A stretch of 64,000 bases of DNA from a virus (IMGVR_UViG_3300028394_000070:7522-71521), one strand, 5' to 3'; positions 16,178 through 55,947 are shown, counted from the stretch's first letter. Numbers and translations: made by a program. The notes: generated from the sequence alone by a model not told the origin.

Positions 16178-16905
16178 ACGATGAACCACTATTGCTGATT
16201 CCGTATCTGCGAGTAAGTACGGACGACCAAGAGAACTCCATGGAGATGCAGTTGGCTGCCGTTGAGCGGTACTGCAAGTACCATGGGCATATCATGGGTA
16301 CTCCATTCGCAGATACGGACGTGAGTGCGTATACCGAGATGAACAACCGCCCTGCTGGGAAGAAACTCCTAGCAGAGGTTAACTACCTAGTGTCCAAGGG
16401 TACTAGGTGTGGTGTGGTGACGCTCAAGGTTGATCGGATGTTCCGCAACTCGATCGATGCACAACTGATCGTGCGTGGATGGAATGACGATGGCATCCCC
16501 TTGTATGTGATTGCTATGGGCGGTGCATCGTTTAATACATCCACATCTATCGGATGGCTATTCTTCCAAACGCTAGTTAGCTTCGCTGAGTTCGAACGCA
16601 ATCAGATATCTGAGCGGACGAAGGCAGTCAAGCAGCATCTCAAGGACAACCTCAAGAAGAATGGGGCGGTGGTCTATGGATGGGTGGCTGACGTTGAGGG
16701 TAACCTCAGCGAGCATCCCGAAGAGGCTCAAGCGGTACGTATGGCATTCAAACTAAAGGGAGATGGCTATAGCCTACAATACATCGCTGATGAGTTCAAC
16801 ATGCTAGGATACAAGACTAAGTCTGGTTCTCAATTCCAACCCGTTACCATCATGCGTATACTTAATTATGAACCGAATCTAAAACTACTTAGAAATGATG
16901 ACTGA
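16174..16905 (+). CDS. serine recombinase (resolvase catalytic domain plus short recombinase domain)
   Basis: YLRVSTDDQ catalytic Ser, VSA..RP, KVDRMFRN, FAEFERNQISERTK, YGW..EA..V...F.....SL..IA. Confidence 0.92.
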   Translation: MNDEPLLLIPYLRVSTDDQENSMEMQLAAVERYCKYHGHIMGTPFADTDVSAYTEMNNRPAGKKLLAEVNYLVSKGTRCGVVTLKVDRMFRNSIDAQLIVRGWNDDGIPLYVIAMGGASFNTSTSIGWLFFQTLVSFAEFERNQISERTKAVKQHLKDNLKKNGAVVYGWVADVEGNLSEHPEEAQAVRMAFKLKGDGYSLQYIADEFNMLGYKTKSGSQFQPVTIMRILNYEPNLKLLRNDD

Positions 16906-37040: not shown

Positions 37041-40000
37041 TTAATCTCTAATCCTAAATTGTTCATCTATTTTATCCTCAATCTTTTCATCTATAGTCTC
37101 GTCTATAAACGCATTCTCACCTATTACCTTCTTAAGGATGTAGTCTTTGTAGCCAGATTCATTCTCATCATAGTTAGCTAAGAATTGATCCAGTTCTAAA
37201 TCAAACTCCATTTTAGATATACCTGATTTAAGTTCGTCATATCTGTCGTCGCAGAACTGTCTCATTATCTTCTTATACTCGTCACGAACTAGATTTTTTT
37301 GCTCTAGTGTAAGAGACTTAACCTTGCTTTCTCCTTCTTCATCATTAGGATCTCTCTCTACATAACTAAATATTCCTGGCTTGTCAAACTGGTCGTTGTC
37401 GTACTTCTTGAACATAGCATAATACTTGCCTCCTGGGCCATTCATGATTTGGTCTACCTGTGGGAATTGCAATACACCATCAGCACCTCTAACATACAGC
37501 AAGCCTTGGGTCCCAACAGGAAGGACACGTTTCGTCTTCTCCTCGATAGGAAAGTCAAATGCATCGGTCTTTTCCTTTCTAATGATATTCTCTATGACTG
37601 GAACACGGAATGTTACAAAATCATACCACTCCCTAGGATCTTTGCCTGCTATACCCTGTAATGACTTCATGTCTTGGTTAAAGTTCTTAACCTCAGCTGC
37701 AACGAAGAAGTTGCTAATCAGATTACTTACTTTTTTAGTAAATAATAACTGCGCTCGGTCTCCCATATCCTCTAGCCCTGGCGCACTGTATGAAGATTTC
37801 GCTCCAATTGCATCAGCTATCTCCATTACAGGCTTAATAGCTGCCTGATCTTTTACTAGCATTAGTTGCAAGAATGAAGACTGCATCATCTGCTGAGTCC
37901 ATGTTTCTGTAGGTTTCTCTGGGTTGTTGTTAAACAATACAACGTCGTTGTTTGCACCTATACTTCCAAACACAGCTGCTAGTAAAGGGTTGTCATTATA
38001 CCTAGTTACTAGTTTTCCATAACTATACACGCAATAAGGCTCTATACCATACATAGACTTCATGGCACTCATCTTAGAATATGCTCCAGGATCTGTATAT
38101 CCATACATAGGGCCTGTCACATAGGTCTTAAGGTTCTTCCACTGCCCATTAAACTCTTCACTACCTTCTTCAGCGGTCTTATCTCCAAAGAATAGCATAT
38201 GACGTTCGTTCTCACTTATCTTACCTACGGCCATGATGCCGTCTTTTAGTATTCCTTCTTTTCTCTCATCGTCATCGTCTAGTGCCTTTCCTATCGCACC
38301 TACTATCGCAGTGGTTGATAATATTGACAATGGAACCAATACAGCCTGTAGCATGGTATAACGAACGATCATCTCCTTCTTTTCCATGTTAACATCTCTA
38401 CCAAGTACGGTGGATGTTACCCTTCCATACATCTCTGTACGAATGCCTTCATTGGTATAGAATTCAGATGTTGCCTTATTTGAATTTAAGAGACCTCTTT
38501 GATTTTTTAACAATCTTGTTATTAACACAATCCCTCCTATAAGCGTATTACCCTGTAGGATCTTCTCTGCTGCGTTCATCGGAGCATTAGCGAACATATT
38601 ACCAATCAAAACCTGAGAACCTGGCATAGCCTTTCCTGGTAACTTAAGGAAATGAGCTAGTATACCAAACGTACCTGGAGGGTTACCAACCAAACCTACT
38701 TTACTAGCTAGTTCTTTTGCTGTTGATATAATCTCATCGATACGTGCGCCATCTAGTTCTGATGCCCATCCATTATTTACGATATAGGCAGCTGCTCTGT
38801 CTTTAGCACCCTCTCTAACAATCTCCATCACCCTTGCTCTGAATAATTTTACATTACGCTTTGCATTGATATCAAGTTCTGCCTCTGTGAATTCAATCTT
38901 TGCCTGAGCAATTGCTTTTACTACTGGAGAATCGCCTAAACCTGGTGTGAATTTAACTCCTTGGATATTAGCCACAGTATCTGCAATCTGTTTGGTAGAT
39001 AGTGTGATGCCATTTTGTTTCGCTAGGTATTTAATCTCATCATACAATAAGTCAGATATCCTTGCTCCTGTTGCTGCCGATGTAAACAATGTATCGATAG
39101 ACCCTAGGAACCTGTTAGACTTTCTAGCGTATTTACCCCATGCTTTTAATGCAGGAGATTCATTTTGCTTAGATAATATTTCTGCTGTATTTGTTGTATT
39201 GAAGTTCTCTGTTTCAACCATCCCTGCTAGGGTTAGTTTAGCATTGTTCATTCCTTCTTTAAACCAAACCTCAGTATTCTTCTCTCCTTTTCTTCCAAAG
39301 TATGACTTTGCAATCAATGGAATCAATCTAAAATCCCCCTCAAATGTTGCTCTAATAGCCTGTGTTACGAACTCATGTGGCATATTAATAACATTGGAGT
39401 TGAATGCCTTCACCATCGTATCCATTGAAAACAATACATTATGATATATCTGTGAAAGGATAATACTTCCAGCCAGTGAATCCCTTATCTTCTGGAATTC
39501 GATGTATGACATCATATCATTATAAAACTGCTGTCTTAGGATACTATTCGGCTTTGTCTTAGCAATCTGTTCTGCGAATATCTTTAGGTTATCACGAATC
39601 TCTTGGTTCATCTTTGGAAGACCGAAGATGTCAGAGAACAAATCATTCAGGTCGGTTAAGTTACCATCCTTATCTGTCAACGATGCATTTTGGTCGATGG
39701 CTCCGTACTTAATCATTTCGAATGCTCTTTCAGCACTTGACTTTTTAAGTATCTTATCCTTACTCTTGGTTCTAGGAACCGACCTTGCTAGTACCTTCTC
39801 TGCTGTCTTTTGTGCAAGCTTATCGTATTCCTTAGTAAACGCTTCGGTAATAGCCTGTGCGTCAGAATATGATATCCCTGTCTGAGAAACTAATCTATCA
39901 ACCAAGTCCGCTACAAAATCTTCTCTGTTTGATGCAATAGTCTCATTAGGCAGAAGGAGAATATCCTGTATCTTAAGTTGCTTATCCTTTACATCCTCTG

Positions 40001-43000
40001 CGAACGTAGCTGTAATCTTTTTTTCTGACCGTGGAAGAGCGTTCGCTATCGTGTCGTTAAAGAACGAATCTAGCTTTCTTCTCAACTCTGCCTTAGCTGC
40101 ATCTGTATATTTAGTAGGGTCAAGTGCTTCAATCTGTCTTTCAACAGCAGCTTTCGACTCGTTCCATATAGGCTTAGTCATTGTTCCGTAGTGGTACAAC
40201 AACCTTCTTAGCTTATCGAACTCAGTCTCATTTTCTACATCAAAATCTTTTATGTCCTGTGTCGCACGTTTAAACAACTCGTCCTTAATCAACTTGATAG
40301 GATCGGTCATCGGTGCTGAGGTTGGAGCCGTCTGTTTTGTTTTGAATACAATCCTCTTGGCTAATATCTCAGCGTTGTATGCTATCTGTGCGTTACCTGC
40401 CTCTCTCCAGATGTCATTCCACATCTCAGTGTAATGAGCATCAGAAATACTCATATTGTCTTTAGCTAGTTTTTTGGCGATGGCATCCTTGATATCATAG
40501 AAATCAAATATACCTCTCTCAAAATTCACCCTTGCTATTTCAGCTAGGATATCTACCACATCAGCATCCACACCAGCAGGATATTGTCTCCTAGCTCTTG
40601 TGTTTCCTAGTGCCTTTAATCTATCCTTAAGCTGCTGAAACAATGAGCGTTCCTTCTTAAGATTTTCTTGTGTTGGTGTTGCAGGTGTCGTCTGAGGCTT
40701 CGGTGGTTTAGGTGGCTTTGGTGTTGTCGGCTTCCCTGGCTTTGGTGGTGTTGTTACTGGGCCTCCTGTAGCAGTTGCTATAGTAGCTCTTACCGCATCA
40801 ACCTCTAAAGCTAGTCTAGCTGCCTCAGCCTTGGCATCCTTCAACTCTTTTATTAGTGCGTCTATCTTTGCCTTTTGTGACTTATCCGTAAATGCAGCCT
40901 CAACGTCCTGTAAGAACTTCTTCGCCTCAATGGTATACATACCCTCAGGGCTATTTAGATATAGCTTATACAATGCTGCAATTTCACGACCATTTTCTCT
41001 AGCACGTTCTGCTAGTAATGATGACGAACTGTTTATAATTTGCTGATACCTCAACTGCTCTGCGGACCCCTTTGCTGCCTTCTTAGCTAGTTTATATGCC
41101 TCATTAAGCACATTACCTACTATGAATGTTTTAACAGCACCAGAGAACTCGTTTGAAAGGTCATACAGATCTTGTACATCTTGAGGTCCATCGATACCAC
41201 CGAACTCGTCTACAACCATCTGAGCTATTCTCATAGCATCGTCTTGGTTCTGTACCGTGTAGTGTAATGACTCTTTTAGCTTGTTTATAATCTTACGATT
41301 TAAGCTCTTGTCAGAACCTAGTTTCTCAAGCTTTGTTTTAATTCTATCTAATACACTTGACTTTCTAGTCTTTGTTCCTTCTTGTTGAGCGAATCCCTGA
41401 CCGCCTTTATTCTCACCGAACTTAGGTCTATTGCCCTCTTTTATGTCAAACCTTAATTGGAAAAGGTCATTAGGATTTAGATCAATTCCATCATCTGATA
41501 GGCCGATATACAATGCCTCGTGTTCGTCATCTTTTATACCACCTGAAGCGTAAAAATTATCTAAGAATGCCTTTGCCTTGTCGTATATTTTAACCTGATT
41601 GTCACGGTCTGCCTTTGTACCCTGATCAGTAGCCCTAGCTGTGTTGTAGTACTGTTGGCTAGACTGAGTCCTTCTGGCTCTGGTGGTAGGTTCATCCTCT
41701 CTATATTGAACCTTTCCTGTAATTAAATTCTCGTCTTCTATATAGTTTTTAGCAGCTTTTAATGACCCTTTAAACACAACATCTCCATCAACTTCAGTAG
41801 TTACTTCCCATGTTCTGCTGTTTTTATTAGCCCTTTCCATTTGAAGTCTGCTAATATTATCAACAATTACATTAGGAGTAATCTGCTCTAATTCTAAACC
41901 CTCTTCATTTAATTCTATAATCTTAGGGTTATCACGGCTATACTCATTGTATGTTGACTTTCTAGCTCTAGTGGAAGGTTCTGCTTGCCCCTTCTCTTGC
42001 TCTAGCAACGGAGTGATTAACTTATCGTACCTGTCGTATATCTCTTTCAGCTTCGCTTCGTCATTAGGATCGGTAGCATCATTTTCAGCCTGCTCCTGCT
42101 CTCTTAACTGCGCTATCTGGTCTGTGACATTTACTTGGGTTCTCCTTGCCCTTGTCGTTGACTCCGCATTAGCGACTCCACGAACACCTCCATTTGGTCC
42201 TTGGTCAGGTGCTGTGCTAGTTCGCTCGGCTCCTCCACCTCTAATCTCTTTTGCGACTGCTTCGGCTTGCTCTCCAAGCCCTCTGTCTGTTGCGATTTCG
42301 ATGAATTGTTTGTCATATGATAATTTTAAGTTTGATGGTTCTTCTCCACGTAGCTTCGCCCAGATATCTTTTTCTGGATACCATAATATCGCTTGTACGT
42401 CAGCATTTGTTACGTCATAACCTCTTTCAACAAGACCCTTGCGTATATTATTTACTACACGTGTTATGACTCTTCGGTCTTGGTTACTAGGAATATCTAT
42501 AGGATTTAAATCCATTATAATATTCTTAGCTGCATTACCCCATTCTGGTTTCTTTGCGCTTATCTCTTCATTGGTTGGAATAAATGTCCTTCCATCTTTT
42601 TCATTTTGTAAAGATATCCAACCTTTTATAGTTTCGCCATCTTTTACTTTTTTATCATTTTGCGCTAATGGCTTTAATCCTTTTGCTTTCTGAGCTGCTG
42701 CGTATACTTTATACTTTTCTTTTTGACGCTCATTAAGTGCTTTTAATTTATTAGATGCTTGAACATATGACATCTCTCCAGACAAGAACTTAGCATACAT
42801 CTCCTTTGACATTGGGATATAATGTATATTCTTATAGTGATTATCTGCAATTAATCTAATTTCATCTGATATCGAATTTAATGCAGCAACAAAGTCTAGA
42901 TCATTCTCTCTATCAAATGTGAACTTATCGTCCATTGTCCAATTCAACTCACCTTTTTCATTTTTTACTTGGACTGGCTTATGTTTTTTAAATTCTTTTG

Positions 43001-46000
43001 GTAATTTGATATTTAATTCTTTGTTTTTAATGCCTTGCGTTACAGTCATATATAGCTTTGCCATACGATCTTCTGTAACACCATCTCCAACAACATCACC
43101 TGTCCATCTACCCCATGTCCTTCTCATCCATAAATCAATGGTTACAGGATCAAATTTACCCATAAGGTTCTGTAAGAATCCTTGACCAATCTTTGGACCA
43201 AAAATAGCTGCTCCATTTACATCATCATTTCTTAACCCTGATATCTTTACTTTATTTCCTGTGGCTTCTTTAAAAGCAGTTTCAAGATCAGCTACAGTAA
43301 ATCCTTTTGAGATAAACTCTTCCGCAGCATTAAGACCCATCTTATCTATGATGGTATTGGCTAGTTCTAGATTGGATGAAATAGCAGGGGCTTTCGCTCC
43401 ATATTTCTTTTTAGAATTAAATCTTCCATTCTTTTTAAAATAGTCGAATTGCTCTTCTGCATATTTTGTATTTACATCAACATTTAAATTTTGTGATGTA
43501 ATAGCTAATGCCATTCTTAGGGCCATTCTAGCAGCTCCTTCAGGATCTTTTTCTTTAGAAAAGACTTCGTACTTCATCGCACTAGCTCTTGATACTAATT
43601 CAGGATGAATGACCCCTGCTACTGCAATTGCTACTTGTATTGCCGTTGAATACCAATTGGCTGCACTCTCATTTTCATTATCTTCAAGAGCATCTATTGC
43701 TTCTTGAATACCATTATTAGTTATTAACTCTTCTTGTTCAGGTGTTATATCATCACTTGTAACAATAGAACCTCCCCAATAATTAGCTGCTGCATTTTGC
43801 AATTCTATTGCAACCGCAGCATTCTTTACCTTCTTTTCTGGTTTTGGTAATTCTTCGCTGTCTTTATATAAAATATTACTAGCAGACATTGGCATCTGTT
43901 CACTTGCAACTTTAGCAGGATCTGCTTCTATTGGTGCTGATCTTCTAGCTCTAGTAGTTGTGGTTTCATTTACATTGTTTTCAATATCATATTCAAGTCT
44001 TTTTACAGCTTGCTGCTTCATTACCTCTTCGGCAGAGTCGTATCCATCTTTATCAAATGATTTTGTATTAGCCTTTTCAACTTCAACTATCTCCTTATTA
44101 GTATTTACTGTTGTATACACTTGAAACTGACCAATTCTATCTTCAATTGTATTTCTATTACCGCCATCGTATATAATGAATACTACATCTGGTCTTCCAT
44201 TATTAAATTTTTTGAATGTTTCATAATCCCAATCTTTAGTAGTATTACCATTCTCAACCATTGGCTTATATTCATCATTAAATGCAGTTCTTGATACTGC
44301 TTTAAATCCAAAATCAGCATAATAATTAGGTAATATAGTATCAAAACATTCTGCTGTTGAAGCCCCTTCTTTAATACCAAGTATTAGTAATTGAGATACA
44401 TTTTTTGGTCTTGTAGGCGATGAAAATGCTCCTCCTAGGAATCCATCTTTTGTTATTGTAACACCTGTACTTCCATCTTCAGTGACAAACATTCTCATGT
44501 CATTGAATTCTTCTGGAGTATGTATCGTTACAGCTGCTGCAAATTTGTTGTCTTTTAATGAATTAATCATTAATTTCTTATACGCAACACCATCAGTAAT
44601 TTCATATACCTTTTGAACACCCATAAAATCAGGGAATGCTTTTTTGATCCCTTCATCTATTTTGTTATCAAGTGTATATTCTGCAATAGTATTTACAGTA
44701 AGCCCTCCAAGTCTTTTAGTTCCTCGTACGTCTCTTTTATCGATTCCCCTCGTACCGCTGCTTCTGCTAATGTAACTCTCCAATAACTTGGGTAAGTCTT
44801 CAACTCTTCTATCTGGTCGTCTGTCAATTTCTTGCTGCTCTTTGATTCTTCTTGCTGTTTCATTTTTCTTTACAGTTGATTCTTCAAAAATAGTATTTAT
44901 ATTTTTAGATTCTTCTTTTTCAGGTGTTCTCCTTGGTCTACTTACTGCAACTTGCTCATTTTCAGTTACAATATTTTTTGTTTGTTGCTTTAATAAAGGC
45001 TCTGCTTTACCTTGAACACCCTGTACGATTCCTGTACGTGTAGACTCAGCCATTGTGTTAAAGAAGTCAATGACATCATTCGTATCGTTCGTGTTCTTAA
45101 ACAATAGATTCGGATCTACAGATATTTTAAGCTTTCTAGCAGCTGATACAATTGTGTTGTTAATCAACTGAGCAATTCTAGAAAGGATAGGCTTAGGTAT
45201 CTTTCTTCCCTCTGCCGACATCATACCTCCAAGCTCCGCTAGGAACTCTTCGGCTGTGACATCCTCTTTATTAGGATCTCTATAGTTTTCAATAAAGTCA
45301 TTTAAGGAAGCTAAATCAGCTGACTCTAATACCTTGCTTAGTTTACCTTGGAATGACTTGAATAGCTTCTGGTCGTTACCAAATATAGTATGCAAACCAA
45401 CATGCATCGCTTCGTGTGCAAACGTACGTATAGCCTCTGCCCTTTCCTTAGGATCTTTCTTACCTAGCATTGTCTCTAGGTTAAAATGGACTGCCTTAGG
45501 CTTGCCATTATTACCCATCACAAAAGCTGCATCGTCAGTAAGATTATGTTCATTTGCCCCTGACGTAGAATATACAGAATCATAAAATTCTTGTGATGTA
45601 GAATGTACGTATATCTTTACATTGGGAGCTATCTTATTAATGAACTTTATAGCATTATTAAGAAGCTTGTATATCTTAGAGGCATCAGCCTGCTCGTCGA
45701 TCATACTGGTAACAGACTCAGATGGATTAGAGTAGTCGTACTCCATCTCTGCCAACTCCTGTTCAGATAATTTTCCTTGTTTTTCAGTTGGTTCCTGCTG
45801 CGTTTGCTTCTGTTGTCTTTCTTGCTTTACTACAGGCTTTGTCCTAGATTCAGGTTTCAGTCCAGTAGCCTCCTCGTTGATACGTGTTTCTTTTTTATAT
45901 CTATCAAGCATGGTGATATCCTCGCCTAGTTTCGCTTGGATCTCACTTATAGCTTCTATGGACTCAGTTAACTTCTGTTGCTTTTCTTTACTAGTGGTGT

Positions 46001-48722
46001 TCTCAAGCTTATCCTGTATTCTTTGTTTTACATCAGATAGCTCATTATACTTCGAATAAAGAACCTCTTGTACATTGTTAGCATCATCAGATGATATTTC
46101 ATCACCATTCATTATGCCTTGGTATGTCTCCTGTATATCAGCAGGAACATCACCCATAAAGTCTAGGTCAGCTATAGGAACACCTAAAGCAATACGATCA
46201 GCTACTAGGCTTATGTCTAGACCTGGGATTATTTTCTCTTCTACAGTCTCTTCTATATAGCTATATGACTTCAGCTGGTCTGCTATTTCCTGAGCTTGCT
46301 GTGCAGCCTTCTCTGTTAATTCAGTTTTTACAGGTGCTGATGAAAATGACTTTGCTAGTGTTTCTAAAGCATTTACAGTTCTTTCAACCTTATTCTTAGG
46401 TATAGGCTCACTATTTTCTAATGAACTAACTAAGTTACTTATAAATCCCTTCCCTGATTGAACAGTAGATACAAATGTTCCAGCTGCATTCTGTTTTGAT
46501 GAGTTACTCACTAAAGCTTTTGTCATAGCCTCTAGTCCAGCGACAGATTCGAACAGTACAGGATTAGCTGGAGCCTTCCACTTCTGGTCAGCTATAGACT
46601 TTAATTCTGCTTGTATCGATATTAACCTAGCTCTATAACCATCTAACATACTAGGGTCTGCGGTAGCCATGTCAGTTTCTATTCGCTTCTTGTCTAGTAT
46701 CAGTTCTATAGAACGCTGTCTTACGGCATCGTCCTTTATGTATTTTGGTATAGCAGCCTTTGCCTCTTTAGCTATCTTTAGATTCTCAACGAAACTATCT
46801 CGTTGTTGCTGTGTTATCTTTCCAGACGTTAGTAATCCATCTGCAACAAGATTCAAGTTATTAAATGCTTCATTATCTCGTATGGCAGCTGATGCTATCT
46901 TTTCGTATGATTGATTATCTGATATCACATCTCCAGCTACAGATATACCACCAGTTCCGAACATACCTAGTACAAATTGTTCAACTGATTGCTTGCCAAA
47001 TTCTGCCATTGTAGGAATCTGGAATCCTGGATCTTCTTTATCTTTTACGAATTCGTTAAATGCTAACTTAGTTACCTGTTCCTGTGTATTTTGCAATACC
47101 TCTGTAGTTCCTTCTGGTATTCCTCTTACAAGTGCCTTTTGAGCAGATTCGTATGTTTTTTTAAATAAACTATTAATTATTTCTGCTTTAGGAACACCTG
47201 CTTTTGTCTGAGATCTAATAAATTGCTTTGTACTATTCTTTAGCATCTCTCTTTCCCATCCTTTTAGCAAGCCTTGGACAGGAAGATATTCAAGAAAACC
47301 TGATCCAATAGCTACCGTTTTAGCGAATATCTCTGCTTCATCTTCTTCAAATCCAGCTAATCTTGCATCATCTTTAAGGTCGCCAAACATCATACCGTAA
47401 CCTGCCATAAAACCTCCTACAGGACCACCTCTATATGTAGCAGCTATAACCGTTCCCATACTAGAAACTAATTGCCCAACAGCATGGCCTCCGTTTGCAG
47501 CATTTAATCCATCCAATATACTCACCTCTGATGCTAGTGCTGTTATTGGATTTGATTTCTTATAGTCTTCTAATTCTTTTTTTCTATTTACAACAAATTG
47601 CTTTACAGCTACAGCTATAGGGTCTGGATTATTTTTTAGTTTTTCGTTATATTTAGGATCGTCAAATACAAATGCTCCAGGTCCAGTCATGGATTCCGCA
47701 ACTGAATTAGCTAGAGATAATGCCATTCCATAAAGATCCTCTACATTACTTTCTAAAAATACAGCAGCTCTATATCCAGCTGGCATACTATCTAGAAAGT
47801 CTGAGGCGAATTGTACATCTTTTTTATGTTGCTTTTTCTGAAAAGGTTCTTGTACCTCGTTAGATACCCTATTGATTATAATCTGGTCGTATAATTCATC
47901 CTGCTTCTTTTTCAATAGAGCCTTGTCTGCCTGTGGGTCTTTTAACATTTTAGTGACCTCAGTAGTCAGATTAAACATATTCTTTGTAGACTCTTCTTGT
48001 AATGCTTTTATCGTAGCGTAGCTTGATATAAAATCAACAGTACCTTTCGCTGAATGATTTCTTCTAACTGCTATCTTTAATTGTTCTTTTTCTGGTTGAG
48101 TCAATTTAGCAATCTCTGCTCCTGATAATCCTAGTATTTTATTTTCTAGTGGAGCTTGTCCCAAATAATTACCAACTGCTGATATTTCAGCTCCTGGAAT
48201 TTTCCCATTATCAATTGCATCAAATATCCACTCAAGGTCTTTATCAGCAGCTTTATATTCATCAATCATCGTCTGAGAGATATTCAGATTTATCTCTTCT
48301 TCTGACTTTGGCCTAGCTATCTCTCTTCCTATTGTATTGAGTGTGAAGTCAGGTAATTCTTTTTTTGGTGCAGCTACAAGTGGATATTCTTCTTGCATAG
48401 ATTGCTCTTCTTGCTGCATCGGTTGAAACGATGATGGTATCCTACTAGACTCCAGCTTAGGTCTAAGGTAGTTACTAGTCAATGCCTGTGCTTCTTCCAT
48501 CGACTTACCGCTAACCATGCCAGCTATATCTCTTGTCTGTGTGTCCGTCAATGTCACACCTGCATTTGAGAAGTATCTCTTAACCTGCTGGGGGTTCATA
48601 TTAGCAGGAAGCTTTGGTTTAGCAGGTGGTTTTTTATATGATCCTGCCATAGATGGAAGCCCATCTTCTTCGCCATTATTATAGTCAACCATGCTTGGCA
48701 ATACTAATTCTTCATCATCCAT
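37041..48722 (-). CDS. 3893-aa polyvalent virion (ejected) protein: zincin peptidase, GNAT-like and HhH glycosylase-like domains
   Basis: HEAMH..EEFLAE; CFD..LP.YY..FGFK; WY..ALAITS..GPKIG..VTIDLWM; located after ejection genes. Confidence 0.8.
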   Translation of the reverse strand: MDDEELVLPSMVDYNNGEEDGLPSMAGSYKKPPAKPKLPANMNPQQVKRYFSNAGVTLTDTQTRDIAGMVSGKSMEEAQALTSNYLRPKLESSRIPSSFQPMQQEEQSMQEEYPLVAAPKKELPDFTLNTIGREIARPKSEEEINLNISQTMIDEYKAADKDLEWIFDAIDNGKIPGAEISAVGNYLGQAPLENKILGLSGAEIAKLTQPEKEQLKIAVRRNHSAKGTVDFISSYATIKALQEESTKNMFNLTTEVTKMLKDPQADKALLKKKQDELYDQIIINRVSNEVQEPFQKKQHKKDVQFASDFLDSMPAGYRAAVFLESNVEDLYGMALSLANSVAESMTGPGAFVFDDPKYNEKLKNNPDPIAVAVKQFVVNRKKELEDYKKSNPITALASEVSILDGLNAANGGHAVGQLVSSMGTVIAATYRGGPVGGFMAGYGMMFGDLKDDARLAGFEEDEAEIFAKTVAIGSGFLEYLPVQGLLKGWEREMLKNSTKQFIRSQTKAGVPKAEIINSLFKKTYESAQKALVRGIPEGTTEVLQNTQEQVTKLAFNEFVKDKEDPGFQIPTMAEFGKQSVEQFVLGMFGTGGISVAGDVISDNQSYEKIASAAIRDNEAFNNLNLVADGLLTSGKITQQQRDSFVENLKIAKEAKAAIPKYIKDDAVRQRSIELILDKKRIETDMATADPSMLDGYRARLISIQAELKSIADQKWKAPANPVLFESVAGLEAMTKALVSNSSKQNAAGTFVSTVQSGKGFISNLVSSLENSEPIPKNKVERTVNALETLAKSFSSAPVKTELTEKAAQQAQEIADQLKSYSYIEETVEEKIIPGLDISLVADRIALGVPIADLDFMGDVPADIQETYQGIMNGDEISSDDANNVQEVLYSKYNELSDVKQRIQDKLENTTSKEKQQKLTESIEAISEIQAKLGEDITMLDRYKKETRINEEATGLKPESRTKPVVKQERQQKQTQQEPTEKQGKLSEQELAEMEYDYSNPSESVTSMIDEQADASKIYKLLNNAIKFINKIAPNVKIYVHSTSQEFYDSVYSTSGANEHNLTDDAAFVMGNNGKPKAVHFNLETMLGKKDPKERAEAIRTFAHEAMHVGLHTIFGNDQKLFKSFQGKLSKVLESADLASLNDFIENYRDPNKEDVTAEEFLAELGGMMSAEGRKIPKPILSRIAQLINNTIVSAARKLKISVDPNLLFKNTNDTNDVIDFFNTMAESTRTGIVQGVQGKAEPLLKQQTKNIVTENEQVAVSRPRRTPEKEESKNINTIFEESTVKKNETARRIKEQQEIDRRPDRRVEDLPKLLESYISRSSGTRGIDKRDVRGTKRLGGLTVNTIAEYTLDNKIDEGIKKAFPDFMGVQKVYEITDGVAYKKLMINSLKDNKFAAAVTIHTPEEFNDMRMFVTEDGSTGVTITKDGFLGGAFSSPTRPKNVSQLLILGIKEGASTAECFDTILPNYYADFGFKAVSRTAFNDEYKPMVENGNTTKDWDYETFKKFNNGRPDVVFIIYDGGNRNTIEDRIGQFQVYTTVNTNKEIVEVEKANTKSFDKDGYDSAEEVMKQQAVKRLEYDIENNVNETTTTRARRSAPIEADPAKVASEQMPMSASNILYKDSEELPKPEKKVKNAAVAIELQNAAANYWGGSIVTSDDITPEQEELITNNGIQEAIDALEDNENESAANWYSTAIQVAIAVAGVIHPELVSRASAMKYEVFSKEKDPEGAARMALRMALAITSQNLNVDVNTKYAEEQFDYFKKNGRFNSKKKYGAKAPAISSNLELANTIIDKMGLNAAEEFISKGFTVADLETAFKEATGNKVKISGLRNDDVNGAAIFGPKIGQGFLQNLMGKFDPVTIDLWMRRTWGRWTGDVVGDGVTEDRMAKLYMTVTQGIKNKELNIKLPKEFKKHKPVQVKNEKGELNWTMDDKFTFDRENDLDFVAALNSISDEIRLIADNHYKNIHYIPMSKEMYAKFLSGEMSYVQASNKLKALNERQKEKYKVYAAAQKAKGLKPLAQNDKKVKDGETIKGWISLQNEKDGRTFIPTNEEISAKKPEWGNAAKNIIMDLNPIDIPSNQDRRVITRVVNNIRKGLVERGYDVTNADVQAILWYPEKDIWAKLRGEEPSNLKLSYDKQFIEIATDRGLGEQAEAVAKEIRGGGAERTSTAPDQGPNGGVRGVANAESTTRARRTQVNVTDQIAQLREQEQAENDATDPNDEAKLKEIYDRYDKLITPLLEQEKGQAEPSTRARKSTYNEYSRDNPKIIELNEEGLELEQITPNVIVDNISRLQMERANKNSRTWEVTTEVDGDVVFKGSLKAAKNYIEDENLITGKVQYREDEPTTRARRTQSSQQYYNTARATDQGTKADRDNQVKIYDKAKAFLDNFYASGGIKDDEHEALYIGLSDDGIDLNPNDLFQLRFDIKEGNRPKFGENKGGQGFAQQEGTKTRKSSVLDRIKTKLEKLGSDKSLNRKIINKLKESLHYTVQNQDDAMRIAQMVVDEFGGIDGPQDVQDLYDLSNEFSGAVKTFIVGNVLNEAYKLAKKAAKGSAEQLRYQQIINSSSSLLAERARENGREIAALYKLYLNSPEGMYTIEAKKFLQDVEAAFTDKSQKAKIDALIKELKDAKAEAARLALEVDAVRATIATATGGPVTTPPKPGKPTTPKPPKPPKPQTTPATPTQENLKKERSLFQQLKDRLKALGNTRARRQYPAGVDADVVDILAEIARVNFERGIFDFYDIKDAIAKKLAKDNMSISDAHYTEMWNDIWREAGNAQIAYNAEILAKRIVFKTKQTAPTSAPMTDPIKLIKDELFKRATQDIKDFDVENETEFDKLRRLLYHYGTMTKPIWNESKAAVERQIEALDPTKYTDAAKAELRRKLDSFFNDTIANALPRSEKKITATFAEDVKDKQLKIQDILLLPNETIASNREDFVADLVDRLVSQTGISYSDAQAITEAFTKEYDKLAQKTAEKVLARSVPRTKSKDKILKKSSAERAFEMIKYGAIDQNASLTDKDGNLTDLNDLFSDIFGLPKMNQEIRDNLKIFAEQIAKTKPNSILRQQFYNDMMSYIEFQKIRDSLAGSIILSQIYHNVLFSMDTMVKAFNSNVINMPHEFVTQAIRATFEGDFRLIPLIAKSYFGRKGEKNTEVWFKEGMNNAKLTLAGMVETENFNTTNTAEILSKQNESPALKAWGKYARKSNRFLGSIDTLFTSAATGARISDLLYDEIKYLAKQNGITLSTKQIADTVANIQGVKFTPGLGDSPVVKAIAQAKIEFTEAELDINAKRNVKLFRARVMEIVREGAKDRAAAYIVNNGWASELDGARIDEIISTAKELASKVGLVGNPPGTFGILAHFLKLPGKAMPGSQVLIGNMFANAPMNAAEKILQGNTLIGGIVLITRLLKNQRGLLNSNKATSEFYTNEGIRTEMYGRVTSTVLGRDVNMEKKEMIVRYTMLQAVLVPLSILSTTAIVGAIGKALDDDDERKEGILKDGIMAVGKISENERHMLFFGDKTAEEGSEEFNGQWKNLKTYVTGPMYGYTDPGAYSKMSAMKSMYGIEPYCVYSYGKLVTRYNDNPLLAAVFGSIGANNDVVLFNNNPEKPTETWTQQMMQSSFLQLMLVKDQAAIKPVMEIADAIGAKSSYSAPGLEDMGDRAQLLFTKKVSNLISNFFVAAEVKNFNQDMKSLQGIAGKDPREWYDFVTFRVPVIENIIRKEKTDAFDFPIEEKTKRVLPVGTQGLLYVRGADGVLQFPQVDQIMNGPGGKYYAMFKKYDNDQFDKPGIFSYVERDPNDEEGESKVKSLTLEQKNLVRDEYKKIMRQFCDDRYDELKSGISKMEFDLELDQFLANYDENESGYKDYILKKVIGENAFIDETIDEKIEDKIDEQFRIRD

Positions 48723-51117: not shown

Positions 51118-54100
51118 TTAACTATTCCAAAGCCTTGCCATCGGATTAAATTTCAATATCATATTTGTTAGTCTCTGAAACACACCAGATTGATAATGAA
51201 ACCTAACCTTTATCCACTGGCCATACAAGAACGTATTATCATTACCTGTGCTACCATTATCTAAGTTGTTAGGTATTGGAGCTACGTACTGATCTAGCTG
51301 CTCTAAGAACTCCACTGGGTTTATTAGTGTCGTGTGATTCTTTGTAAATGCCTCTACTTTATACGGAGCAATTTCTGTATTGCATATCAACGATATGAAG
51401 TGCTTGGTAGTGTTAGGGTCAATATTAAAGACAATGTCTATATACCCGTCTTCAATTTGGCCACCTGAGCTAGACATATACCACTCTAGATACTTTCCTT
51501 CATTATGCTCGTATATCTGATTAGAATTACTAGATGGAGATGGTGACAAGAAAGTGTCCTTGTACTGAAGATAAATTCTTGGATGAGGTGTCTCTTCAGA
51601 AATTATAAACCTATTCTTAACTTCACTCCATACAATAGTTCTTAAACTATAGTACTCAATGTCATCAAATGGAATCGGTGTATAATATTCCTCCCATCCT
51701 GGATCCACTCCTGGATTTAGCGCATTATTAAACTCACTACTCTGGATACATAGGTATAGTATTGGAAACTGCTCGAATCCATATGTATTAGTTGTATCGT
51801 ATGTTATAACCAACTTTCCTTCAGCAATGGCCGTTAATGGCTCCCAAATAACGTCTGGCTTTCTATACGCACGACATGTCCATGAAGCCTCGTTAATACG
51901 CTGGTTCCATATACCATGAATACCATAGTTGTCGGCAGGAGTTTGGTAGTTAACTACCCACTTAAATCCATCGTTAGCTAGCGTTCTAATATTTGTTCTG
52001 TCAGAGATTGGCACGGCTCCATCTGCACCAAAGCGCATAAACTTCTTGTTGATTGAGTCATACCAATACAATGTATCATCACCTCCAGCAGACTTACCTA
52101 GAAACGATGACCACTTGTCTGAGCATCCGTAGCTAGTTATAGTTAAACCTGGTCTAGATAATACACCTGCGTCCCCTAGTACAACCTGAGAACCATCACT
52201 TACAGATAATGTACCTCTGGTATTTACAAACTGCTTTTGGAACTTTTTAGTCTGTAGAGTAAACAACTCACCGTTAACAACCTTCATGTCTTCTATTGGG
52301 CCGAATGATGGATCTAAGTCTCTCAATGAAAACGGGCCAAATCTTCTGTAGTTGTTTGTTATTGAGCCTTGTGGCTTATTGTCAGAGTAAATTATCCTAG
52401 TATTTAATGTTTTTGTTTTATTGTTTATCTCACCAGACCTGTATCCAACCTGTAAGTTATTAAGTGAGTAACCGTTGTTGTATGGATTAGAATCTAGTGT
52501 TATTTCTGTATTCTCCCAGGCTCCGAAGTTATTTGGTCCATAGCTGTATGGATATATTTTACTACCATCGCTATCGTCAATTAAATAATTATTGACTTTT
52601 GATTGTAGCGTTAGGTTTATTGTTTGAGCAGCTGTTGGATACGTACCAGGATTGTTAATAGCTTTGATACGTGTTATATGCTTGAAGTATGGATTAACAG
52701 TGAAGGTATCCCCACCAAATACATCAATCTTAGTGACATTGTTTTGGTATATATATGCCCCTGTGTAAACATAGTTATCTAGACCACTATCTGAATATTG
52801 CTGTGTTGTACTAGGCTTCTTTTTTATTTGTACAATCCTAAATCCATGATCTTTATCTGTAGGGTTTACTTTAAATGGATCCAATCTCGGCAAACCTCCT
52901 CCAGGGCTTGGCACTTGGACTACATAACTAGCTGGGCTTTGGAATATGTCAGTTGAAAATATAACTGGTTGCGCACTTCCTGGTGGAGGAAATGTCCCTA
53001 CATTACCTGAACCGTTAATGGTTAAGAACGCTCCACTGACCCAACTGCCTGGAGTTAATTTAAATATAACAGCATCATTACCATTTCCTTCTACTGTTAT
53101 ACCTACACCACTACTAGCAGCGTCAGTATTAAAATAACTAAAGAAAGTAATATTTGATATACCACCAAAAGGCACAAAATATGATGCTACAAATTGATTA
53201 TTATATGTAAATGTATAGTTACTTCCTCCAATTCCCCCATACGTAACATCATATCCACCCATTGAGTGTAAATTACTTACATTCAATACTGTAGGTAGTG
53301 CAGATTGGGTAAATCCAGCCCACCCCCAGTTTTTATATGATATCGAATTAAATGTGTTTGCACCTGTCCCCTGCACAAATAATGCAGATCCTAGTTGAGG
53401 AATAAGTTTTGAGTCAGTTATATTAACATCTTCTTTTACATTATTAGTAATTACATATCCCTTTCCTATAACACCTTGTCCGTAATTTATTATTGTATCT
53501 CCTGCTCCTATATCTTTATTGTATGGTACTCCATCTACGATATTTACCATAGATTCGGCTAGGTAGATACTAAAATAATTTTGCGGTGATCCATTTTGTA
53601 TATCATTATTATTATTACTGATAAATGGATAGTCCGCTATATATCCTTCGTTATTAGTTGTGATATTATTAGGAATCTTTTCATATACAAACGATCCTAA
53701 TGTAGGTGATATCTGTACCTCATATAGACCAAATCCAATGTTTGCATCTATTTGTTGTACTGCTATTCCACATCCAGTAATTGTCTCATTGGCTTCATTT
53801 AACTCAACCCTAAATATTTCAATCTTATCAATAATATCATTAGCTAAATATTCATTTATCAATGTATTGTATACATTAGAAAAGTCTAACTCTATATAAG
53901 GAACTAAATTTTCATCTGTCCCCCCTGGGCCTGTTCCTGGTGATACTAAGTCATAGTCTGTTAGTCCCGATGTTCTTTTATTATCAGATGATGATTGATT
54001 TGTATCTATAGTAATATCAGAAATCTTATAGACAGGTGTGATGTCTCCATTTTTAAATGTAAACCTAACTCCGATCCTATAGGTCTCATTTATCATGTAA

Positions 54101-55947
54101 CCAGTATAGTAATAGATATTTATTGGGTCTTGATGACCTCCAAATCCAAATCCATTACTTGCCCCTGTTACTTGAACTGGCCTTGTTATTACTTTCTTTT
54201 TAAGTGAATATTTTATTTTGTCTATTAATATTTTGACATCGTATTTTATTGTCTTCAGGTTCGATAAGTAATACCTGTTATCTATAATCAGATTATTCTT
54301 AGCTGTTGAATAGTTCTCTGTTTGTACACCCAATTCATCCTGATTAAATAGTCTAGGGTTCTCTCTTCCACTATGACTTATGTCTAGTGTAGTATTAGTT
54401 CCATCTACTAGATATTCACCTATGATTCCATATATAGACGAATCAATACCTATCGTATTTACTATAATACAGGCAACCTCTATGCTTTTGTATAGGCTAC
54501 TGTTAATGTTAGTAATCCTTATGTTATTTGTCTTTCCTGACTGATCTCCTGCTGCATTACCCTTTATCTTATACGCAGGTGGTTGACTCTCTGTATAGAC
54601 AGAAACAAACCTAGATGGTAATGACCAGTCTGTGTACGAGTTGTCACTTAGCACACCCCTTACGAAATAGACGTGGTTCCCTACTGATAACGTACCACCT
54701 ATAGTTTGAGACACTAGCTCTATGTTAAACAATCCCTGACCTAGTATATGTCTTACTTGGTTAGATATGTTTGCATATGAATATGTTCCAATGTTAGGGT
54801 GTAGTATCTTAATAGCTCCGTCTTCAACGTATTCTTCATCTAAAAGGTAGTTAAACAACCTAGGTTCGTTATAGTTATCTGTAAAATATATAGTATTGTC
54901 ATACGATGACTTCTCTCCCTGTACGTCGCACTGATGGTATGTGAATAAATTTAATTGCTTAGAACGAAGCAATCTAGTGTACTTCCAAGTATTGGACGAG
55001 ATGTCTTTTTGTGCGACACCTATTTCTCCCATACCAAACTTATTAAATGTCATTGTGCCTGTACCTTGGACATATGTCTGACCTAATACAGCGAATGAAT
55101 TAAATAATATAAATATTGTTTCGCCTGTTTGAGGAATTTGCGCTACAGTTATAATGAATACTCCATTCGCTTCTGGAATACCTTCTACTCCTGTTATGTA
55201 TACCTCCGAACCATCTACAACTACTTCGTTTATAATATTTGGATAAACGACTAATGTAGAGACACCTGCAACATTTAATACATCGATGTATAGTATTTCA
55301 ATATCAAAAGGCTTATCCCGTTTACATGATGAAATAATAAAAAGGTCTCCTAGTAAATCTTTACTACCAATAACCTCTAGCTTTCCTGTCCTAGATGGGC
55401 TTATAGACTCCTGTATAACATCTACTAGTAGACTATTTGCACCTGTTGATATTATGAAGTAGTCATATAAACGAAGGAATGGACTATAAGACGCAGGGGT
55501 AATTAGTAGTGTATTAGTTCCTATTAATGAAGGGTAAACACTAGAAGCAGGGACAACATCTACAAAATAGCTAGCATTTGCGAATGCATCTCGTATTGCT
55601 GTTGCAGCTTGTGTCCCAGGTGCTATATTTGGATCTCCGAAATATAGAGGTACATCTATTGCTGGAAATAATGGATTGATTTGGTCAGCTCTATTTACTT
55701 GTAATATATATCCACCATCAGGTTCTATCTCAGGAAATGTTATTACATACCTCTTATCTTGCTCTAGTACCTCTCCTAGTTCAAACGCATATTCATTTCC
55801 CATACGTGGGGTAACAGCAACCGACTCACCCGTAACAGAACTGACATGATCAATATTCTTTGCATCAGGGTAGTCACCGTTACGCAAGTCCTGTACATGG
55901 GTGTCTGTATTGAGTCCACCGAATGATCTTATCTGAACATTAGCCAT
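51118..55947 (-). CDS. tail stabilisation/nozzle protein (crAss-like)
   Basis: FGGLNTD..Y.DA.NI N-terminus, IYFTDNYNEPR, ETYRIGVRF, YWYD beta-propeller C-terminus. Confidence 0.8.
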   Translation of the reverse strand: MANVQIRSFGGLNTDTHVQDLRNGDYPDAKNIDHVSSVTGESVAVTPRMGNEYAFELGEVLEQDKRYVITFPEIEPDGGYILQVNRADQINPLFPAIDVPLYFGDPNIAPGTQAATAIRDAFANASYFVDVVPASSVYPSLIGTNTLLITPASYSPFLRLYDYFIISTGANSLLVDVIQESISPSRTGKLEVIGSKDLLGDLFIISSCKRDKPFDIEILYIDVLNVAGVSTLVVYPNIINEVVVDGSEVYITGVEGIPEANGVFIITVAQIPQTGETIFILFNSFAVLGQTYVQGTGTMTFNKFGMGEIGVAQKDISSNTWKYTRLLRSKQLNLFTYHQCDVQGEKSSYDNTIYFTDNYNEPRLFNYLLDEEYVEDGAIKILHPNIGTYSYANISNQVRHILGQGLFNIELVSQTIGGTLSVGNHVYFVRGVLSDNSYTDWSLPSRFVSVYTESQPPAYKIKGNAAGDQSGKTNNIRITNINSSLYKSIEVACIIVNTIGIDSSIYGIIGEYLVDGTNTTLDISHSGRENPRLFNQDELGVQTENYSTAKNNLIIDNRYYLSNLKTIKYDVKILIDKIKYSLKKKVITRPVQVTGASNGFGFGGHQDPINIYYYTGYMINETYRIGVRFTFKNGDITPVYKISDITIDTNQSSSDNKRTSGLTDYDLVSPGTGPGGTDENLVPYIELDFSNVYNTLINEYLANDIIDKIEIFRVELNEANETITGCGIAVQQIDANIGFGLYEVQISPTLGSFVYEKIPNNITTNNEGYIADYPFISNNNNDIQNGSPQNYFSIYLAESMVNIVDGVPYNKDIGAGDTIINYGQGVIGKGYVITNNVKEDVNITDSKLIPQLGSALFVQGTGANTFNSISYKNWGWAGFTQSALPTVLNVSNLHSMGGYDVTYGGIGGSNYTFTYNNQFVASYFVPFGGISNITFFSYFNTDAASSGVGITVEGNGNDAVIFKLTPGSWVSGAFLTINGSGNVGTFPPPGSAQPVIFSTDIFQSPASYVVQVPSPGGGLPRLDPFKVNPTDKDHGFRIVQIKKKPSTTQQYSDSGLDNYVYTGAYIYQNNVTKIDVFGGDTFTVNPYFKHITRIKAINNPGTYPTAAQTINLTLQSKVNNYLIDDSDGSKIYPYSYGPNNFGAWENTEITLDSNPYNNGYSLNNLQVGYRSGEINNKTKTLNTRIIYSDNKPQGSITNNYRRFGPFSLRDLDPSFGPIEDMKVVNGELFTLQTKKFQKQFVNTRGTLSVSDGSQVVLGDAGVLSRPGLTITSYGCSDKWSSFLGKSAGGDDTLYWYDSINKKFMRFGADGAVPISDRTNIRTLANDGFKWVVNYQTPADNYGIHGIWNQRINEASWTCRAYRKPDVIWEPLTAIAEGKLVITYDTTNTYGFEQFPILYLCIQSSEFNNALNPGVDPGWEEYYTPIPFDDIEYYSLRTIVWSEVKNRFIISEETPHPRIYLQYKDTFLSPSPSSNSNQIYEHNEGKYLEWYMSSSGGQIEDGYIDIVFNIDPNTTKHFISLICNTEIAPYKVEAFTKNHTTLINPVEFLEQLDQYVAPIPNNLDNGSTGNDNTFLYGQWIKVRFHYQSGVFQRLTNMILKFNPMARLWNS

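Follow-up and report, generated by a model that had tools for sequence, protein, structure and literature searches.

Polyvalent proteins, in which one phage or plasmid polypeptide combines 2–15 conflict-type domains, are widespread in phages and plasmids, and autoproteolytic release of their domains by zincin-like MPTase domains has been predicted since 2017, without sites or experiments (Iyer, Burroughs, Anand, de Souza, and Aravind, 2017; PMC5512222). Here we describe a giant open reading frame (ORF), P0001, that joins zincin-like, GNAT-like, and HhH-GPD-like folds in one polyvalent-style chain. It is the giant protein of a 64,000-nucleotide window (the whole stretch of DNA analyzed, IMGVR_UViG_3300028394_000070:7522-71521) that makes up most of the 71,521-base IMG/VR record of an uncultured crAss-like phage; P and L numbers are labels of related proteins. 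Like polyvalent proteins, P0001 is a giant multidomain phage protein that joins conflict-type enzyme domains and a zincin-like peptidase. Unlike proteins with the polyvalent signature set, P0001 itself has no Pfam match to LPD, ART-PolyVal, or MPTase-PolyVal domains, although its homologues carry such signatures. It also departs from the main-text description in PMC5512222 in having a lineage-coded junction peptide at each boundary and a zincin that PF18818, the MPTase-PolyVal model, does not recognize. That main text names no cleavage motif: "linker", "interdomain", "low-complexity", and words beginning with "boundar" occur 0 times, and "cleavage site" appears in a reference title only. We found no named junction code in the literature listed for TRARR or for polyvalent-protein cleavage sites. 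The self-processing idea has been known since 2017, and the specific lineage-coded junction peptide apparently has no name in print.

In T4-like and phiKZ-like phages, a separate assemblin-type prohead protease cuts head and ejection proteins at a short consensus present in many substrates. RNA virus polyproteins contain a protease acting in cis, and MARTX-type toxins release swappable effector domains by an internal protease. P0001 resembles the prohead protease systems in its short repeated consensus, but its motif is confined to one protein that has its own zincin-like domain. With RNA virus polyproteins and MARTX toxins it shares a single chain, an internal protease or protease-like domain, uniform linker sites, and effector modules exchanged between strains; those systems differ in their cysteine or serine proteases and in their biology, making this an analogy of mechanism and not of membership. 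Phage P1 DdrB and DarA are head-packaged anti-defence proteins that are proteolytically processed, DdrB having a C-terminal MPTase-type domain (PMC5512222); as described there, they undergo single cleavage events, are much smaller, and have no repeated junction motif. Phage phi-crAss001 packages the cargo proteins gp45–gp50, whose genes come after that of the muzzle protein (Bayfield et al., 2023; PMC10172136). P0001 is like gp45, gp46, gp47, gp49, and gp50 in its post-muzzle place and very large size, and its transmembrane-like segment resembles the one predicted for gp45. By sequence, P0001 matches no Protein Data Bank (PDB) chain, and it has no DxDGD-type polymerase motif. The main text of PMC10172136 reports no processing.

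We propose that the gene encodes a phage polyvalent protein of the cargo or ejection type, organized as viral polyproteins are. The constant chassis at its N terminus would end in the zincin-like metallopeptidase domain and be followed by variable, self-contained enzyme cassettes (in P0001, GNAT-like, HhH-glycosylase-like, and two mini-modules), with a constant helical region and a membrane-active C terminus closing the chain. Each boundary after the peptidase would be a disordered linker carrying x-[P/T]-T-T-R-A-R-[R/K]-[S/T]-Q. The built-in zincin would recognize this junction motif and cut the protein into separate effectors and structural pieces, either while still packaged in the capsid or once the host has received it by ejection, and any cassette placed between two junctions would be released correctly because the sites are uniform. 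From the sequence and the predicted structures, we put the chance that the zincin cuts in cis at the junctions, releasing interchangeable effectors, at about even. More tentatively, and at somewhat below an even chance, we suggest that giant phage polyvalent cargo proteins in general are self-processing, with each zincin lineage reading its own junction peptide and cassettes moving only between the junctions of the recipient. A uniform short site at each boundary, accessible linkers, and a protease-like domain within the chain are the traits in which P0001 resembles a self-processing polyprotein.

A first-pass annotation of this DNA had reported a HEAMH zincin motif, a downstream EEFLAE, and six TRARR-related motifs bracketing discrete modules. 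All were recovered at the same coordinates, in one 3893-amino-acid (aa) minus-strand ORF (Table 1), and the bracketed modules measure 329, 600, 61, 96, and 361 aa with their closing motifs. SRPRR and the five TRAR[RK] copies all lie downstream of HEAMH...EEFLAE. Composition predicts 0.005 TRAR[RK] copies in P0001, and among 20,000 shuffles of the protein at least one copy appeared in 0.46%, with a maximum of 2; a chance origin is ruled out by both measures. A degenerate DNA pattern for TRARR has 4 matches in the 71,521-base record, all in the giant gene (reversed control, 0 matches), and a six-frame search of ORFs of at least 50 aa for [TS]R[ASP]R[RK] or RxR[RK][ST]Q returned the six giant-gene sites only.

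The motif recurs in close relatives. A search over the full length of P0001 gave 53 proteins at E <= 0.001, P0001 included; P0002–P0009 are 55–96% identical to P0001 in their N- and C-terminal thirds, and all eight carry the motif, with one weak look-alike in the remaining 44 proteins. The 50 instances in these nine proteins give the consensus x-[P/T/G]-T-T-R-A-R-[R/K]-[T/S]-Q and, over 46 unique contexts, core counts of T 42, R 45, A 40, R 46, and R/K 42. These comparisons bear out the annotated conservation at the protein level and show that TRARR is under protein-level selection.

When the nine proteins were divided at the motif and the resulting segments clustered, 15 families emerged, 3 constant and 12 variable. 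The constant families are the N-terminal chassis with the zincin (C), a ~355-aa helical region (B), and a ~1180-aa C terminus (A). Between C and B the cassettes vary: P0001 reads C-G-D-J-N-B-A, P0002 C-G-H-I-E-B-A, P0003 C-G-D-E-I-B-A, P0004 C-F-H-K-B-A, P0006 C-L-M-F-D-J-K-B-A, and P0007 C-L-M-F-D-B-A, so that cassettes are gained, lost, and reordered at the motif, with E and I found in both orders. In P0005, B stays joined to A in the motif split, and an IRSRR junction precedes it. Homology between P0001 and its relatives breaks at aa 1589–1595, near junction 1, with the match to P0002 ending at aa 1595; homology with P0003, P0005, P0007, and P0008 ends at aa 2198, near junction 2; and homology with seven of the eight homologues restarts at aa 2342–2344 (2331 in P0005), near junction 4. 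Of the internal BLAST endpoints among the nine proteins, 99/225 fall no more than 5 aa from a motif and 128/225 no more than 10 aa, compared with 2.3% and 3.8% of random positions, counts that describe and do not give a probability because the protein pairs are related. Among the distant endpoints listed, most fall in the variable extreme N terminus or in low-complexity linkers. Domains named by Pfam fill whole cassettes (ART-PolyVal is E, DUF7178 is H, GNAT is O); in P0002, for example, ART-PolyVal spans 2293–2434 within a cassette of 2274–2451. Thus domain gains, losses, and reorderings occur at the motif and not at unrelated positions, and the motif is shown here, by these alignments, to mark the exchange points of cassettes. 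Since the slots of close homologues are filled by ART-PolyVal, DUF7178, and GNAT cassettes, with polyvalent signature domains present in P0002 and P0003, the polyvalent-protein architecture suggested at first pass also holds.

Cassette L of P0006 (aa 1414) and P0007 (aa 1415) contains a second HExxH motif, HELIH, and is possibly a second metallopeptidase-like module used as cargo.

In more distant lineages the junction follows the chassis. An exhaustive phmmer search with aa 66–1265 returned 96 proteins, among which chassis relatives 31–33% identical to P0001 have TKASK three times (P0055) or TKAGRT four times (P0059). At the orthologous B–A junction such relatives have [ST]KAAR and then a conserved PAG[LMIV][DE]P/A, where P0001 has TRARR-QYPAGVDA; as the motif is kept here, between constant regions, it is not merely a scar of swapping. 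Other proteins of the same zincin family have [IV]SKSQ, LKSKAQ, or VAPRQQ, with 3–6 repeats each; in L006–L008 the form is [G/D]-V-A-P-R-Q-Q, 4–6 repeats, after a zincin of P0001's family. Repeats of [QRL][FY]MPAE, K[YF]SL[AS]R, or RFNPK are found in other giant proteins, in which cassette D is the only shared part. P0010, whose zincin is 29% identical to that of P0001, contains a D cassette 82% identical to P0001's and has SKSQ on both its flanks. Because junctions are lineage-specific and the D cassette of P0010 is flanked by SKSQ, the motif is shown here to be, on these alignments, a property of the chassis lineage and not of the cassettes, and the junction peptide appears to be read at the protein level by something specific to that lineage.

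The coincidence of exchange points with the motif also fits a different view, in which the motif is mainly a recombination joint, kept for cassette exchange and not for protein function. The six junctions use AGR (AGA/AGG) for all 17 of their Arg codons, compared with 117/153 elsewhere in the gene, where CGN makes up 23% of Arg codons. Of the five VAPRQQ junctions in L006 (third-position identity 0.73–0.75), three agree at every one of their 18 bases, which suggests DNA-level homogenization or very recent exchange. In P0001, however, codons do differ between copies, as annotated: the five TRAR[RK] copies have a third-position identity of 0.38, about the ~0.40 expected from codon counts by our own arithmetic, and the few bases of identity that junctions share at most would not suffice for homologous recombination. 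At the B–A junction, where no exchange occurs, the motif persists across 31–33% identity, and cassettes that moved between lineages carry the recipient's motif. A mainly recombinational function therefore seems improbable to us, but a DNA-level role in cassette exchange may coexist with protein-level reading because VAPRQQ junction DNA is near-identical between copies. We also considered translational pausing at rare Arg codons and rejected it: AGA is the commonest Arg codon of the gene (103/170), and other lineages have motifs that lack Arg.

What might read the junction peptide? The zincin-like domain has HExxH...EE intact in 70/70 relatives that cover the site, the H, E, H, E, and E residues are nearly invariant in the alignment, and the downstream Glu is probably the third zinc ligand. 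In the 24 zincin-family proteins with at least 3 junction copies each, 96/98 copies follow the zincin, 2 lie inside it, and 0 precede it. A conserved zincin preceding the array would be the simplest reader of the junction peptide. It is also conceivable that the motif is a cleavage site for another protease, encoded in the phage's unsequenced half or by the host, and that the zincin does another job, such as attack on a host protein or the cell wall. The estimated completeness of the record is 49%, so the missing half could encode a protease acting in trans; the zincin is assigned to its fold and family with moderate strength; Iyer et al. (2017; PMC5512222) allow such peptidase domains as effectors; and a phi24B preprint suggests that the peptidase of the phi24B polyvalent protein has a role at the cell wall. 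Yet Pfam finds no other protease family in 30 further ORFs of the window, and across all six frames of the record no second ORF carries the motif. A general phage head maturation protease usually has several substrates, and a motif found in a single protein is unlike that pattern. Moreover, motif type tracks zincin lineage and copies follow the zincin, and a host protease leaves unexplained why differing motifs surround an 82%-identical cassette in different chassis. We regard reading by another protease as quite improbable.

Two AlphaFold2 models, of aa 955–1600 and aa 1580–2730, with alignments checked for register, place all six motifs outside folded domains, in mostly coil stretches with a predicted local distance difference test (pLDDT) score below 50, and the objection that motifs might fall inside folded domains fails for this reason. 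In the first model the zincin (pLDDT 70–94) is followed by ~100 residues of pLDDT below 50 that contain SRPRR, then by the G core (pLDDT 50–75), with TRARR 1590 in a low-confidence tail. In the second, D (pLDDT 75–95) and the two-helix unit of J (84–91) are confident and B is helical; cassette N (below 30) has no confident model because the alignment holds no homologues of it.

Predicted disorder around every motif would suit a protein that is never cut, in which the junction is a conserved flexible-linker feature with another role: a handle for threading through portal and tail, a contact with packaged DNA or a virion partner, or a folding spacer. TRARR is strongly basic, mass spectrometry found large phi-crAss001 cargo proteins at 154–277 kDa in an article whose main text has no word starting with "cleav" or "proteoly" (PMC10172136), and N4 virion RNA polymerase is packaged uncut (Iyer et al., 2017; PMC5512222). 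A charge-based role does not generalize, however, to the non-basic junctions found elsewhere (VAPRQQ, Q-FMPAE), partner binding would need a reader as specific as a protease, and none was identified. A strict five-residue motif within fast-changing linkers, at each boundary after the peptidase, is instead the pattern of polyprotein sites. We consider an uncut protein unlikely, if less so than the recombination joint or another protease.

The fold labels given at first pass stand at moderate strength. With VIA-align, for which Z below 8 can reflect a common arrangement, the zincin region matches the Certhrax N-domain (Z 7.0), the lethal-factor N-domain (Z 7.0, 6.9), lethal factor (Z 6.1), PPEP-2 (Z 5.6, 154 aligned), PPEP-3 (Z 5.1), and collagenase T (Z 5.0), and so appears to resemble zincins of the lethal-factor/PPEP/collagenase type. 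Cassette G, the GNAT-like module, aligns with more than 15 GNAT structures at Z 4.6–5.6 over ~87–121 residues, and PHROG 2563 matches its aa 1401–1487. Cassette D, the HhH-glycosylase-like module, aligns with 3n0u (Z 8.7, 198 of 209 residues), 7rdt (Z 8.2), 8a5g (Z 8.0), and 1pu6 (Z 7.9), over 188–198 residues that cover the targets almost fully, and with phage PaMx11 gp46 (8z2m, Z 8.1). For all three domains the Z values are middling. Neither G nor D matches Pfam when searched in pieces at E <= 1, and Foldseek returned nothing from the PDB at E <= 0.001 for either model.

Several points weigh against cutting by the zincin in cis. Because polarity, lineage specificity, and active-site conservation are inherited together, they do not test the reader's identity independently. 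The zincin fold matches are middling (Z <= 7.0), and the best are non-catalytic N-terminal domains of Certhrax and lethal factor. The domain matches no Pfam peptidase model, MPTase-PolyVal (PF18818) included; among 20 members of the zincin alignment, one touches PF18818 (E 0.0025), one matches SprT-like (E 0.0079), and one DUF6782 (E 0.0051). Conservation is lowest at the junction that comes first after the zincin, which appears as SRPRR, QRARR, QRQRK, TRARA, or TTARK among the nine proteins. The uniform AGR codons count here too, as does the near-identical VAPRQQ junction DNA, which fits a DNA-level role as well, and the possible protease of the missing half. Finally, peptidase domains of this kind occur in N4 virion RNA polymerase, ArdC, and TraC1, which are delivered uncut (Iyer et al., 2017; PMC5512222). 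A predicted complex of the zincin with a 46-residue junction peptide scored 0.02 against a mark of 0.32, which speaks neither for nor against cleavage.

If the built-in zincin is the reader, the protease/site pairs of different lineages would be natural orthogonal processing systems. The junction peptide gives exact candidate scissile regions and cassette borders, so that unknown effector domains could be excised one by one, and would explain how new anti-defence enzymes are slotted into an injected protein without redesign. If the lineage-specific code is true, these proteins would be plug-and-play delivery racks with cut sites readable from sequence. As the motif ends in Arg-Arg or Arg-Lys, tryptic proteomics cannot tell natural cuts from trypsin cuts.

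Table 1. Features of the giant ORF and the upstream muzzle gene, in window coordinates
Feature	Position	Strand	Remarks
Giant ORF (P0001), 3893 aa, stop codon included	37041..48722	-	Single uninterrupted frame, ATG start
Constant N-terminal chassis before zincin, aa 1-983	45774..48722	-	56-88% identical in P0002-P0007
Conserved chassis domain, aa ~395-725	46548..47540	-	Recurs in about 40 other proteins
Zincin-like domain, aa 984-1219	45066..45773	-	HExxH...EE, fold matches, pLDDT 70-94
HEAMH, aa 1103	45402-45416	-	Motif
EEFLAE, aa 1158-1163, 55 residues after HEAMH	45234-45251	-	Motif
Junction 0, SRPRR, aa 1261, degenerate copy	44928..44942	-	pLDDT below 50, coil
Cassette G, aa 1266-1589, GNAT-like fold	43956..44927	-	Common to P0002, P0003, P0017
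Junction 1, TRARR, aa 1590	43941..43955	-	pLDDT below 50
Cassette D, aa 1595-2189, large helical domain with HhH-GPD-glycosylase-like core	42156..43940	-	Fold matches
Junction 2, TRARR, aa 2190	42141..42155	-	pLDDT below 50
Cassette J, aa 2195-2250, two-helix mini-module	41973..42140	-	Among nine proteins, common to P0006 only
Junction 3, TRARK, aa 2251	41958..41972	-	pLDDT below 50
Cassette N, aa 2256-2346	41685..41957	-	Among nine proteins, P0001 only
Junction 4, TRARR, aa 2347	41670..41684	-	pLDDT below 50
Constant helical region B, aa 2352-2707	40602..41669	-	Separable in 8/9 proteins; helical model
Pro/Thr-rich linker near end of region B, then one helix	40683-40769	-	
Junction 5, TRARR, aa 2708, between constant regions B and A	40587..40601	-	pLDDT below 50
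Constant C-terminal region A, aa 2713-3893	37044..40586	-	Constant among homologues
Strongly hydrophobic, transmembrane-like segment of region A, aa 3460-3478	38289-38345	-	One only
crAss-type muzzle protein gene	51118..55947	-	Pfam PF25731, E 7.3e-35

The muzzle gene stands two genes upstream of the giant ORF on the same strand, with weak matches to tail ring protein 1 and an SU10-like capsid protein farther upstream and a collagen-like fibre gene downstream of the giant ORF. The giant ORF thus follows the muzzle gene in a structural block, as crassvirus cargo genes do, and since the post-muzzle genes of phi-crAss001 encode packaged cargo, it is reasonable to infer from this position that the giant protein is packaged in the virion. 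The chassis domain at aa ~395–725 may be the virion-anchoring part; proteins sharing it are 320–3,100 aa long, ten of them gave no meaningful Pfam family, and the domain has no PDB sequence match.

Database searches returned little for the giant protein. The whole protein matched 0 Pfam families at E <= 0.1 and 0 PDB chain sequences by phmmer, eight pieces searched against Pfam at E <= 1 gave no polyvalent or peptidase family, PHROGs likewise gave almost nothing, and profiles of the zincin and of the N-terminal domain found nothing meaningful among PDB chains. Among 50,697 phage records, the C-terminal region had zero matches by megablast and tblastn, no cultured phage resembled the giant gene, and the middle region matched 8 unrelated records, through cassettes only. 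IMG/VR scans gave 0 relatives with the zincin and 2 with cassette G. A virion RNA polymerase identity was dropped on motif grounds, as the giant protein has no DxDxD. The DxDGD-type motif of two-barrel RNA polymerases is also absent from ORFs of at least 150 aa in the 71,521-base record; the virion polymerase expected of crAss-like phages either lies in the missing half or is too divergent for this detection.

Cassette D is present in more than 50 other giant proteins and as stand-alone proteins of ~500–570 aa. It fills the same slot as the DUF7178 cassette H in different homologues (H in P0002 and P0004), and a protein-language-model atlas puts D beside DUF7178 clusters (0.94–0.95); D and H may be distant relatives. 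The [Q/R/L]-[F/Y]-M-P-A-E repeat occurs 3–7 times per protein, at a spacing of ~50–700 residues, in P0022, P0027, L010, L011, L013, L024–L026, and L033–L035, whose HExxH domains are missed by the P0001 zincin profile. P0023 has six copies of K[YF]SL[AS]R, and L030 and L031 have three copies of ER-FNPK. In P0012–P0014, the place of a short motif on the flanks of D is taken by a repeated ~50-residue helical element, IPL[ST]..K.A.DA...LV..G..LRDAI.K. The free-standing homologues P0181, P0191, P0192, and P0188 (~475–530 aa) come from bacterial records, where they are annotated as hypothetical; free-standing D is found on megabase contigs of Agrobacterium, Rhizobium, and Neorhizobium (Rhizobiales) and on an 8.6-kb contig of Roseibium.

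Elsewhere in the window, a 243-aa ORF (16174-16905, plus strand) matches the N-terminal domain of serine recombinases (resolvases; E 1.7e-25) and includes the first part of a Recombinase domain. A primase-polymerase/helicase fusion is encoded at 1852-4011 on the minus strand (PHROG 19930, E 7e-62), and an AAA-type ATPase at 7939-9129 on the plus strand is filed under PHROG 249, "porphyrin biosynthesis".

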